Shown: in pieces, positions 1 through 18,411 of the stretch
How positions within the stretch are numbered: position 1 is the first letter of the stretch
Layout: every line of letters begins with the position of its first letter
From: Promethearchaeota archaeon
GTDB lineage: Archaea; Asgardarchaeota; Odinarchaeia; Odinarchaeales; JBHLKK01
Reading direction: 5' to 3'
DNA length: 23,354 bases
NCBI GenBank assembly: GCA_048939465.1
Contig: JBHLPL010000005.1
Span: 1-23,354, forward strand
The notes under the pieces: generated by a model
What the model was told of the DNA's origin: nothing
Databases searched by the model: none
The model's input: only the letters and a program-made list of their open reading frames with translations
Program-made: the position numbers and the translations under genes

Positions 1-995
1 CGGTATACCACGAGTTTTTTAAGAGAATGTCCAACCTCAGCAGCCTTTTCTGCTACTTCCAAAAATGTTTCACCAATATAGAAGGATTTTGAGTTCTTAA
101 TCCGTTCCCAATCTACTTCAGAAGGGGAGACAGAAAGTGCAGTATCGGACCCCTTCAACACGAAAATACGTTTGTTGCCCTTAGCAATTGTGATAAAAGT
201 CTGAATTGTTGTGCTTCTATCGTCTACAATGATGTGCTGTGTGTCGACACCGCTTCCCTGTAGGGCAGCCAGTAATCTTTTTCCCGCCGAATCTCCTCCA
301 ACCTTCCCTACCAAGCTCACACTAAGGCCTAACTTAGCGATTGCGTTGGCAACATTTGCAGCAGAACCCCCAGGCAAATGAAGCGGATCATCTATCAATA
401 CCGTTTCATCTGTTGCTGGAAAATCGTCTAGCATTCCTACAGTATCCAGCGCTATGGAGCCAAATACTATAACGTCTCGTTCGGCTACCAGCTTCTTGAG
501 AGATTGTTTTATGATATCTTCAAATTCATATGGACTGACTCCATAGGATTGACCTAGGGATACCACCTTCTCAGAATATATTTTGAACAGTTCTTTAATT
601 ATCTCCCTCATTTTTTCTGGCTCTTCACTTTTTCTAGAGAGAAGTAAGGTTAGATACTCTCCCATGACTGTTGGTTGATAATACTTTAACCAAACAGCTT
701 TTTCCTCCCGTTCAACCCTTTCCATTTCCTCACCGAGTACCTCAATCTTTACCATGTTTTGAAGATGAGTAATCACAGATTTGTTTGAATGTTCTTTCAG
801 TTCGGCTATAATTTCAGATTGAGATATTTTCTTTCTTTTTGAGAAGAGGCGTAGGATTTTTATTGGTATTTTTGAGCCAAAAGCAGAAATGAACAGAGTT
901 TCTTGTTCTTTTAGTTCTGTCGGCAGAAGCAGTAAATATGGCCAAAGCTTCATTTTGCGGGAACCCAAGGATATCCCTTCTTTAGCTATTTTCAT
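1..995 (-). CDS. N-terminal winged-helix-like domain fused to PfkB/ribokinase-family carbohydrate kinase (C-terminus runs off the left edge)
   Basis: Not in the ORF track; translated by hand from ATG at 995 and open to base 1. N-terminal part: MKIAKEG...FGSKIPIKILRLFSKRKKISQSEIIAELKEHSNKSVITHLQNMVKIEVL...VWLKYYQPT (HTH-like). From about aa 173: RDVIVFGSIALD...PGGSAANVANAIAKLGLSVSLVGKVGGDSAG, the PfkB signature-1 region. Confidence 0.88.
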   Translation of the reverse strand, partial: MKIAKEGISLGSRKMKLWPYLLLLPTELKEQETLFISAFGSKIPIKILRLFSKRKKISQSEIIAELKEHSNKSVITHLQNMVKIEVLGEEMERVEREEKAVWLKYYQPTVMGEYLTLLLSRKSEEPEKMREIIKELFKIYSEKVVSLGQSYGVSPYEFEDIIKQSLKKLVAERDVIVFGSIALDTVGMLDDFPATDETVLIDDPLHLPGGSAANVANAIAKLGLSVSLVGKVGGDSAGKRLLAALQGSGVDTQHIIVDDRSTTIQTFITIAKGNKRIFVLKGSDTALSVSPSEVDWERIKNSKSFYIGETFLEVAEKAAEVGHSLKKLVVY

Positions 996-6870: not shown

Positions 6871-7428
6871 GTGGTTTTTTTGGAGAAGAAAAGCGAAGTC
6901 TCGAAAGCGTACGACAAAACTGCCAAGTCCTACGATCGTAGATATTACAGAATTCAGTTGGCGAAGTATGATTTTCTTCTAAGTAATACTAGACTGAATT
7001 CAGATGATTTCATTTTAGATGCTGGCTGCGGAACTGGACTTTTCATGAAACGAATTGGTCATATCGTAAATAGAATAATCGGTATCGATGTCTCTGAGAG
7101 AATGCTTAGAATTGCCACAAACCGCGTTTGTGGTGGAATCTTTGTTCTAGCTGATGTCGATTCTTTGCCTTTCAGAAGTCAGTTGTTCTCAAAGGTGTTT
7201 TCAATAACCCTTCTTCAAAATGTTCCAAATCAATTAGGTTCATTAAGAGAGCTGGTAAGATCAATACGAAATGATGGTTTCCTCATAGTTACCACATTGA
7301 GGAAGAAGATGAGTGTTAAAGAGCTTCGCAGACTGCTTCAAGAATTAAGACTTGATGGAATAAGGGCTGGAGAGATACCCGGAAGTGAGGATATTTGGGG
7401 GATTGGTGCGACCTTGTCCACAAGTTAG
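6871..7428 (+). CDS. Class I SAM-dependent methyltransferase
   Basis: Motif I ILDAGCGTG, GIDVSERML, ADVDSLPF. Confidence 0.85.
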   Translation: MVFLEKKSEVSKAYDKTAKSYDRRYYRIQLAKYDFLLSNTRLNSDDFILDAGCGTGLFMKRIGHIVNRIIGIDVSERMLRIATNRVCGGIFVLADVDSLPFRSQLFSKVFSITLLQNVPNQLGSLRELVRSIRNDGFLIVTTLRKKMSVKELRRLLQELRLDGIRAGEIPGSEDIWGIGATLSTS

Positions 7429-16189: not shown

Positions 16190-17879
16190 TCATAGCTGTT
16201 GTCTTGCACGGCTGTATTTTAAGGCCTCTTTGACGAACGCATGATAAATCGGAGATGGTGCATCCGGCCGCGATCTGAATTCTGGATGGAACTGAACACC
16301 TACTATCCAACTATCTCCTGATAGCTCGATTGCATTAATTATTCTCCCGGTAGGATCATACGCAGATGCAATTAGTCCTTTCTGCTCAGCTTGTTTCGCA
16401 TACTCGTTCATTATGTGATAACGATGTCTAAACCTCTCAACCACTCGCTCTTTTCCGTACGCCTCGAATAGTTTCGTGCCTTTTTTAATAAGGATTTCTT
16501 GCGCGCCTAGTCGCATGGTCCCGCCTTTACTGTCGACCTGCCTCTGCTCAGGAAGCAGGTCTACAACTGGGAATTTTGTATCTGAATCGACTTCGGTCGA
16601 ATTTGCCCCCTCTAATCCCAGCATTGAACGGCAAAAAGTAACAAAAAGAAGTTGGGCTCCAAAGCAGATTCCCAGGTAAGGAATCTTATGTTTTATCGCA
16701 TACTCAGCACATTTAGTCATTCCTTCCACTCCCCTGAAGCCAAAGCCAGGCGTTAAAAGTATACCATCGAATCCCTGCAATGCGGAAAGCTTGCTCGGAT
16801 TCTCTTCAAATTCTTCAGTCTCAATCCATTTTATCTCAACTTCAGCACCCGCGTGCGCACCAGCGTGCAATAAGGCTTCATTAATACTAACGTAGCTGTC
16901 AACAATTTCGCAATATTTTCCAGGCATAGCTATGTTAACAACTCTCCTTCGGTTCTTGAATAGCTCAGATATGCTCTTCCATTTATCCAAATCTGGTTTC
17001 TGTTTTTCTAGATTCAGGATTCTGCACAGGTATTTCCCAAGTCCCTGTTCCTCAAATATTAAGGGCATGTCGTACACCACATCTATATAGAGGCTGGAGA
17101 TAACCGCCTCCTGTGGAACATTACAGAATAGGCTAATCTTTTGTCGAATATCATCAGTCAGATCAGTCCGAGCACGTCCCACCATTACATCTGGCTGCAA
17201 ACCCATACCCTGCAATGCTTTGACGCTATGTTGGGATGGTTTAGATTTCAGTTGACCTACCTTTTCTAAATAGGGAACAAACGTTACGTGCACCAGCGCT
17301 GTGTCACCAGGGGGTTCTTCTAATCTAAATTGACGAATGGCCTCCAAGAAAGGCATAGCTTCTATGTCGCCAACCGTACCACCAACCTCGGTTATTACTG
17401 CGTCCGTTTTAGTTGTTTCTGAAACTAGGCGGATGCGCTTCTTTATCTCATCAGTAATGTGAGGAATGACTTGCACTGTCTTGCCGAGAAATTCTCCTTT
17501 ACGTTCTTTCAAAATCACAGAGAGGTAGATTTGTCCGCTAGTGATATTATTTCGGGGATGGATAGGATGACCCAGGAAACGTTCATACGTTCCAAAATCT
17601 TGGTCTATTTCAGAGATCGTGAATACAGAATCCTTAACGGGCTCGAAATCCCAGATTTCCTCCGTAACAAATACCTCGCCATGTTCACGTGGATTCAGTG
17701 TACCAGGATCCACGTTCAAATAGGGATCAATCTTTATGATATCCACGGAATAGCCTCGAAATTGCAGTATTTTTCCTATGGATGCTGCAGTAGCGCCTTT
17801 GCCTTTAGGCCAACTTAGGAGATTGTCCAGAAGGTATGCCCGACATGACGCCTCCTACAACGAATATATACTTTGTCAA
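16190..17879 (-). CDS. pyrG: CTP synthase, predicted spliced CDS join(17879..17836,17804..16190), 552 aa
   Basis: TTG 17879 gives MTKYIFVVGGVMSGI. After removing 31 nt the frame continues GKGATAASIGKILQFRGYSVDIIKIDPYLNVDPGT...KTVQVIPH...EVGGTVGDIE...GICFG...GGTMRLG...RHRY...QFHPEF. The track's 518-aa ORF lacks the N-terminus. Confidence 0.92.
17805..17835 (-). other. Putative 31-nt bulge-helix-bulge (BHB) mRNA intron in pyrG
   Basis: Pre-mRNA ...UGUC GGGC AU^A CCUUCUGGACAAUCUCCUAAGUUG GCCU AA^A GGCA...: 4-bp helix GGGC/GCCU, 3-nt bulges AUA and AAA, exon stem UGUC/GGCA extended by GGCGUC/GGCGCU. Cutting after nt 2 of each bulge restores the frame. Confidence 0.8.
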
Positions 17880-17899
17880 CTTTATCTCACACCATAAAT

Positions 17900-17925
17900 C
17901 TTGTTAATATTAAGAGCTTTTTAAC
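17900..17925 (-). promoter_or_regulatory. Putative BRE/TATA for the pyrG-nurA-herA transcript
   Basis: Minus strand AAAAAGCTC-TTAATATT about 30 nt upstream of the TTG start; GGTGTGAG just before the start. Confidence 0.35.
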
Positions 17926-18097
17926 GTTTCCGAGACAAGTTCCATTTTTGTGGAATTTGAGCCTGCATTTTAACAAATCCACTTACTTGCTCTTCAGATA
18001 TCTCCGTGGAGTTACAGTCTGTTTGATGCGTTTCTGCTGAAGTTTTGGCAGAAGTTGATTTTAACGTTCACTGAAAAACTTCCACACAATCAATCAT

Positions 18098-18411
18098 GTG
18101 AACTACCCGTATCTCTCGCAAGGGGCTTCCTCCCTCGCTCTCCGGATCGCTAATAGGTCTCCTTTCACAGCGGTGAACCCCGGCGAGGTTTGGGGCTTGT
18201 TCACTTCCCGTTGCAAGCAGTCACAGGCTGCTGGAAAGCCGTTTTCTTAAGCGAATATTCTGAGAGCCGGTTACGTGTGTTGACGCGGCTGCTCGACACC
18301 CTTCTTCACTTTCGAGACCACAGACCTCAGCCTTAAATATCCAAGAAAATACTTAAACGCAATGCAATTTATCCCCACGCTCTCGAATGGAGGCCTCTCG
18401 TGGAGAAAGAG
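18098..18411 (-). mobile_element. Non-autonomous IS200/IS605 (IS1341/tnpB-type) remnant or MITE with both end motifs
   Basis: Minus strand ends GGAAGCCCCTTGCGAGAGATACGGGTAGTTCAC (right-end-like, TCAC at 18098). The other end reads ACGAGAGGCCTCCATTCGAGAGCGTGGGGATAAATTGC (left-end-like). An internal frame EVCGLE...HVTGSQNIRLRK resembles the TnpB C-terminus. The left boundary is approximate. Confidence 0.6.

Follow-up and report, generated by a model that had tools for sequence, protein, structure and literature searches.

Introns with a bulge-helix-bulge (BHB) fold have been described in the cbf5 pre-mRNA of Crenarchaeota (Watanabe 2002; Yoshinari 2006; Yokobori 2009, PMC2738675). A 2023 review named cbf5 and HVO_1309 as the two archaeal mRNAs spliced by the endonuclease and expected more to follow (PMC10485636), and full-text literature searches turned up no account of such introns in protein-coding genes of Asgard archaea. 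The present analysis concerns pyrG, the gene for CTP synthase, in a 23,354-nt stretch of DNA (contig JBHLPL010000005.1 of assembly GCA_048939465.1; the whole stretch is called the window below) from an uncultured Asgard archaeon, Promethearchaeota archaeon. The 31 nt at window positions 17835..17805 are very probably an archaeal BHB intron in the only pyrG of this organism, removed by the tRNA-splicing machinery, and CTP synthase is almost certainly made only after its mRNA has been cut and re-joined. This reading, which stood at the core of a preliminary description of the window, is supported by an insert that keeps its position, length and BHB as its sequence diverges, by purifying selection on the exons (low dN/dS), by the finding of a single pyrG, by genes for the endonuclease EndA and the ligase RtcB, and by exact-register inserts in other genes. 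The mechanism would be the known one, here in a metabolic gene that is essential and belongs to an Asgard lineage with apparently numerous such introns.

Reading frame and exons of pyrG

The pyrG gene lies on the minus strand, as do all features of the window described here. A TTG at 17879 opens the reading frame as MTKYIFVVGGVMSGI, which is followed by PSGQSPKLA and a stop. This dead-end open reading frame (ORF; 17805..17879) encodes 24 aa, its premature stop coming 24 codons in. The frame that reads GKGATAASIG... is a different one, which starts at 17803 and is open down to 16190. With 17835..17805 (31 nt) deleted, ...GGC AU is followed directly by A GGC AAA..., and the product is a 552-aa CTP synthase with the motif GGVMSGIGKG. 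When all 31-nt deletions were tried in pyrG, this motif was regained in two equivalent registers only. The preliminary description had reported the TTG start, the 24-aa dead end and the frame switch, and every coordinate proved correct on recheck; its claim that removal of these 31 nt restores SGIGKG and a 552-aa protein was likewise borne out by the deletion test.

Exon 1 (17836..17879, 44 nt) runs from the TTG start through codon 14 and into codon 15, of which it holds the first two bases (MTKYIFVVGGVMSG plus the AU of Ile15), while the 31-nt BHB intron (17805..17835) contains the in-frame UAA that ends the 24-aa ORF. Exon 2 (16190..17804) supplies the third base of Ile15 and runs from GKGATAASIG... 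to the stop, a total of 537 codons. From its first residue exon 2 matches positions 14-265 of the Pfam CTP_synth_N profile, followed by GATase, and the 13 residues K3-I15 of exon 1 equal the 13 CTP_synth_N positions that exon 2 does not contain. The spliced product is predicted to contain the junction peptide YIFVVGGVMSGIGK. Upstream, the 5' leader (17880..17908) holds GGUGUGAG at 17886-17893, which resembles a Shine-Dalgarno sequence and presumably acts as one. The leader stretch is identical in both other species of the genus (genomes G001 and G002; the host genome is G000), where the TTG start is also conserved.

BHB structure at the insert

An unconstrained minimum-free-energy (MFE) fold of window:17785-17860:- consisted of a GGCGUC/GGCGCU stem, a 1x2 loop, UGUC/GGCA, a central GGGC/GCCU helix, an AAA bulge and a weak intron hairpin, and thereby reproduced the helices, 1x2 loop, AAA bulge and weak intron side that had been described beforehand. 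The outer, exon-exon helix h (MFE fold and pair list) has its 5' strand at 17842..17852 (GGCGUC, A, UGUC) and its 3' strand at 17792..17803 (GGCA, AA, GGCGCU), the latter formed by the GKGA codons of exon 2; from the inside outward it comprises 4 bp, the 1x2 loop and 6 bp. The central 4-bp helix H pairs GGGC of exon 1 (17838..17841) with GCCU at the 3' end of the intron (17807..17810). Two 3-nt bulges lie on opposite strands with this helix between them, each 3' of its central-helix strand: bulge 1 is AUA (17835..17837), with a predicted 5' cut between 17836 and 17835, and bulge 2 is AAA (17804..17806), with a predicted 3' cut between 17805 and 17804. The intron hairpin h' (17811..17834, 24 nt) consists in the host genome of one closing C-G pair and then 3+3 bp (CUU/AAG, GGA/UCC). 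In view of this weak h', the pyrG BHB of the host is a relaxed, hBH-like form.

For canonical 37/38 tRNA introns it is established that the cut falls after the second base of each bulge. At the pyrG insert, cuts in these two places restore GGVMSGIGKG and the 552-aa frame. To gauge chance, structures were counted in which a 4-bp helix and two 3-nt bulges come with a closing inner pair and four or more outer pairs, all at fixed position and spacing. Such fixed-register BHBs occurred at 1.6e-4 of positions in the host genome, and the one in pyrG coincides exactly with the frame-restoring junction. The MFE was -25.7 kcal/mol (z = -1.9); register, not stability, is what exceeds chance in the pyrG BHB.

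Conservation of the insert and selection on the exons

G001 and G002 both carry a 31-nt insert in the same codon of pyrG. Versions of the insert were read from 11 assemblies (G000-G002, four further NCBI metagenome-assembled genomes (MAGs), three Logan contigs and one JGI contig) and fell into six distinct versions, each of 31 nt, with the same bulges, the same outer helix and the closing C-G. Bulge 1 is AUA in all six and bulge 2 is AAA or ACA (A[AC]A). The central helix pairs GGGC or AGGU with GCCU, which is GCCC in one version and produces an A/C mismatch there; the AGGU of G001 and G002 still pairs with GCCU through wobble-compatible synonymous changes. All six versions splice in silico to GGVMSGIGKGATA. 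The intron itself diverges: 13 of the 31 positions (~42%) differ between G000 and G002, with the G, GCCU and A of the 3' end unchanged. Different pairings maintain the hairpin inside the intron, CUU/AAG and GGA/UCC in G000 and AUUGGA/UCCAAU in G001 and G002, where h' reaches 6-8 bp. The same-position inserts that the preliminary description had proposed to look for in relatives are present. In contrast to these genomes, no insert was found at this site in pyrG of Odinarchaeum (four genomes) or of 26 other Asgard genomes whose pyrG 5' end was read, all of which have GG[VL]xSG[ILV]GKG or a close variant without a break.

The same versions speak to recoding by the ribosome, whether through a translational hop of the T4 gene 60 kind or through frameshifting, with the insert translated as ~10 additional residues. 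In favor of recoding, the second frame is open through the insert in G000 and G002, and GGC codons flank the insert on both sides. A GGC-to-GGC hop would nevertheless remove Ile-Gly from the invariant loop, and in G001 and G002 the take-off codon is GGU against a landing codon GGC. A UGA inside the insert in the second frame of G001 confines any shift to a two-codon window, no conserved slippery site was found at the pyrG insert, and none of 120 homologues offers a precedent for some ten extra residues in the nucleotide-binding loop. Since hop and frameshift alike also leave the conserved BHB and the conserved intron 3' end unexplained, recoding is judged highly unlikely. Introns of group I or group II, which have a ribozyme core of hundreds of nt, and inteins, which are protein-splicing domains in frame, were considered and rejected for an insert of 31 nt that is out of frame and has a stop inside, and no Rfam match was obtained at E up to 1 over 17500-18200.

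The exons of pyrG are under strong purifying selection. Between G000 and G001/G002, exon 2 shows a dN/dS of 0.05-0.08 at a dS of 1.1-1.2 and has 537 codons in all three species. Exon 1 (44 nt) differs from G001 and G002 mostly by synonymous changes (four synonymous and one V-to-A change relative to G001), and no further stops or frameshifts were found in exon 2 in the 11 assemblies. The premature stop is what would be expected of a pseudogene inactivated by a small insertion, yet constraint of this kind over 537 codons at dS >1, the lack of further breaks, the finding of no other pyrG and an insert that is not a repeated element make that explanation extremely unlikely.

Selection on the 5' end bears in turn on whether the functional product might be N-terminally truncated, with 516-518 aa read from GTG 17746 (MDIIKIDPY...) and the upstream piece a decaying remnant. 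An ORF starting at GTG 17746 does exist and NCBI records call the 516-518-aa products of this pyrG cluster 'CTP synthase', but its product would be without the GGVxSxxGKG loop and CTP_synth_N positions 1-35. Furthermore, conservation across species at dS >1, with mostly synonymous changes, extends over the leader, the start codon, exon 1 and the 19 codons that separate GKG from the GTG, whereas a remnant should have decayed. A truncated product is considered very unlikely.

With the host MAG fragmented into 152 contigs, the insert might also have arisen in assembly or sequencing. Four DNA runs from as many studies have contigs that span 17805-17835, and no contig joins across the insert; one run holds a strain variant with its differences concentrated in the intron, whose reconstruction was identical to two independent assemblies (L216 and L217). 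These runs and the six diverged versions in 11 assemblies from NCBI, Logan and JGI leave an artefact with a negligible probability. A profile search with PF06418 gave a single match in the 91%-complete host genome, so that no second, intact pyrG was found there of the kind that the preliminary description had said would undermine its reading.

Similar inserts in other genes and lineages

For a census independent of motifs, 400 kb of Odinarchaeum (L117-L136) supplied ORFs of 100 aa or more as tblastn queries against the host genome, and 346 of these queries had hits. Inserts of 22-32 nt that break conserved motifs were found in six genes besides pyrG. These are an mtaD-like amidohydrolase (C118:3291..3265, minus strand, 27 nt), ahcY with three inserts (C24:7509..7483, 7334..7305 and 7289..7268, minus strand; 27, 30 and 22 nt), a DRG GTPase (C113:448..471, plus strand, 24 nt), aIF5B (C69:18515..18543, plus strand, 29 nt), EF-2 (C68:10915..10945, plus strand, 31 nt) and a gatA-like amidase (C77:44591..44560, minus strand, 32 nt). 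The restored motifs, with the protein junction marked by a slash, include CHTHAAMT/LLRGY, NTGH/FNVE, IPRH/KGT, REAGGI/TQHIG, EEQERG/ITIK and NMDEFA/MGSS. All eight inserts have an exact-register 4-bp helix (3/4 pairs in two of them) with two 3-nt bulges, and the restoration of conserved motifs on their removal validates within the host genome the rule of cutting after the second bulge base. No interruption was found in Odinarchaeum in pyrG or in any of the six census genes. An ahcY-like piece on C118 has two further inserts (490..464 and 329..297), which were rejected; neither shows a convincing BHB, and both could be ordinary indels.

The census missed pyrG itself, whose first exon is too short for it, so the count is a lower bound. 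By extrapolation, the host genome may hold a few dozen introns of this kind. No sequence shared among the introns was found, and no second copy of the 31-nt pyrG insert was found in the genome, so this single-copy intron does not belong to a repeat family. A genome-wide scan for BHBs combined with ORF fusion, controlled with shifted cuts, gave no enrichment; its null was dominated by same-strand gene boundaries, which made the scan uninformative. A degenerate-pattern scan of metagenome contigs for an insert at the pyrG site returned 72 loci, all chance matches (e.g. a gut-bacterial gene). In a separate observation, a 208-aa Odinarchaeum ORF matches the host genome in two frames with a 1-nt offset (G000:C106:11606-11610, plus strand), which may reflect a frameshift or an error in sequencing, unless the match is a spurious antisense one.

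Other Asgard lineages have inserts elsewhere in pyrG. In another family, genomes G022 (L024, ~1460-1500) and G032 (L025, reverse strand) carry an insert at KIDP/YLNV; its helix is CCC[UC]/GGGG, its bulges are UAA and AAU, and its hairpin has 9-11 bp. This insert is 31 nt long in G022 and 32 nt in its congener G032, and both splice in frame; splicing explains this difference in length, while readthrough as extra codons does not. In a third family, G023 (L138) and G033 (L137) have a 31-nt BHB insert at FGTY/ERF, with 3/4 pairs in the central helix. By these three positions, pyrG has been invaded at least three times among Asgard lineages. Three proteins that start at MSGIGKG (P0007, P0010 and P0106) were examined as further interrupted N-termini and set aside: their DNA is uninterrupted and they reflect gene-calling differences only.

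In the wider reading, which we regard as reasonably likely, protein-coding genes of this lineage contain several dozen introns that depend on the endonuclease, that of pyrG among them (~10 found in ~7 of ~346 genes), and these reflect an ongoing gain of non-spliceosomal introns into essential mRNAs; expression of these genes would depend on the tRNA-splicing machinery, and the dependence could be used for control.

Splicing machinery and proposed mechanism

The host genome encodes two EndA paralogs, of 204 aa (G000:C90) and 191 aa (G000:C139). Asgard EndA is reported to be an (alpha-beta)2 enzyme with an L1 loop, tolerant of relaxed BHBs (PMC5829648), with which the two paralogs agree. Two RtcB homologues are present, one in C78 and one in a 973-aa frame. 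The latter, at G000:C31:2961-5708 (minus strand), matches the Pfam profile in two parts (profile positions 1-57 and 45-426) within that single frame, which suggests an intein of ~450 aa in this RtcB ligase. ARAGORN recognized just 15 tRNA genes in the genome, 12 of them with an intron, and most of its tRNA genes are probably too interrupted for recognition. The picture agrees with a preprint on Asgard tRNA introns (bioRxiv 10.64898/2026.10.13.758758), which describes tRNA genes with heavy interruption and does not treat mRNAs.

In the proposed mechanism, the glycine-rich codons 9-14 of exon 1 would pair in the pre-mRNA with the 3' end of the intron and the first codons of exon 2 (GKGA), a pairing predicted to yield the outer helix, the 4-bp GGGC/GCCU central helix and the AUA and AAA bulges. 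A heteromeric splicing endonuclease formed by the two EndA paralogs would cut past the second base of each bulge, and RtcB would ligate ...GGC AU to A GGC AAA..., creating Ile15-Gly16, the GGVMSGIGKG nucleotide-binding loop and the 552-aa enzyme. Unspliced mRNA would give only the 24-aa peptide, and if the BHB-intron reading holds, CTP synthesis depends on splicing. Because the BHB starts 26 nt past the start codon, where an elongating ribosome would melt it, splicing would have to precede translation or compete with it. The preliminary description had further suggested that splicing might act as a control point, that nurA-herA might be affected and that the excised intron might circularise.

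Several observations weigh against a BHB intron in pyrG. The stability of the fold is unremarkable (z = -1.9), the intron-side helix is weak in G000, and the A/C mismatch noted above falls within the central helix of G001. Changes in the central helix are one-sided (wobble) only, and the 5' half of the BHB also encodes protein, which means that conservation there is not independent evidence. With no clean double compensatory pair and an exon half constrained by coding, it is the conserved geometry and the conserved 3' end of the intron that carry the structural case, and not covariation statistics. The preliminary description had looked to a covarying BHB among relatives; geometry and intron 3' end were indeed kept, and a double compensatory pair was not seen. 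In addition, the genome is a MAG, and a second pyrG may lie on an unbinned contig. No RNA runs were listed as holding the window or pyrG alone, which bears neither way on splicing.

Genomic context, annotation and implications

The window corresponds to contig C116 of G000, a 1.96-Mb MAG. The nearest named relatives of its pyrG belong to Candidatus Odinarchaeia, including Odinarchaeum yellowstonii at ~70% identity, and Odinarchaeum is placed in the same order as the host by GTDB and the genome search. Submitter labels for this pyrG cluster vary (Promethearchaeota, Hodarchaeota). DNA of the window is present in mangrove and other sediment metagenomes from eight studies. The gene order is purA, pyrG, nurA and herA, and pyrG and nurA are also neighbors in relatives. 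The pyrG stop and the nurA GTG start overlap by 20 nt (window 16190-16209); in relatives nurA begins 4-13 nt after pyrG, and the pyrG-nurA pairing reaches a Baldrarchaeia contig (L220).

Public records of this pyrG (P0003, P0122-P0125, P0128; P0002, P0126, P0127) give either a 516-518-aa 'CTP synthase' from an internal GTG or a 546-aa product that starts within the intron, and the intron is unannotated.

On the splicing interpretation, an essential enzyme of nucleotide synthesis could be produced only once its mRNA had been spliced in this way, and the same would apparently hold for several core translation factors of this genome. Public annotation of these genes would then be wrong, with pyrG deposited as a truncated protein of 516-518 aa, and automated gene calling as well as estimates of completeness and pseudogene content would be biased for Asgard MAGs. 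The locus offers a concrete, testable system for the entry of introns into protein genes in the prokaryotic lineage nearest eukaryotes. If the wider reading is true, non-spliceosomal introns are still being gained in essential mRNAs of the closest prokaryotic relatives of eukaryotes.

Comparison with known systems

The pyrG insert resembles the cbf5 intron in being a short intron within coding sequence with a somewhat relaxed BHB, whose ligation restores the frame. Like the hosts of the cbf5 intron, its host has a heteromeric (alpha-beta)2 EndA, and presence among related taxa is patchy. It differs in its gene and in its host, an Asgard archaeon related to Odinarchaeia from mesophilic sediment, and it shares its genome with several other such introns, unlike the cbf5 intron, which stands alone in its hosts. 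Splicing of cbf5 was shown experimentally, while that of pyrG is deduced from sequence. Homology of the two introns was rejected, as the host gene differs and sequence and position are unrelated; the pyrG insert would be a separate gain, with the likeness confined to mechanism.

As in HVO_1309 of Haloferax volcanii, the proposed substrate of the archaeal splicing endonuclease is an mRNA (PMC7714728, PMC10485636). Unlike HVO_1309, which belongs to a euryarchaeon with an alpha2 enzyme (PMC10485636) and has experimental support, the pyrG case is deduced from DNA sequence, and its intron lies inside an invariant codon pair of the catalytic loop of an essential enzyme. The pyrG intron has the same motif, size range (~15-50 nt) and presumed enzymes as the BHB introns at non-canonical positions in Asgard and TACK tRNA genes (PMC5829648; bioRxiv 10.64898/2026.10.13.758758), but its host is an mRNA, its removal restores a reading frame, and there is no tRNA body to act as an extra recognition element. 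A more distant parallel is found in HAC1 and XBP1 of eukaryotes, cut by IRE1 and then joined by a tRNA ligase or RtcB (PMC13149111), with which the pyrG intron would have in common its small size, protein-only, structure-guided excision from an mRNA, joining by a tRNA ligase and a change of frame. The endonuclease IRE1, the twin stem-loop motif and regulation by stress, in contrast, belong to HAC1 and XBP1.
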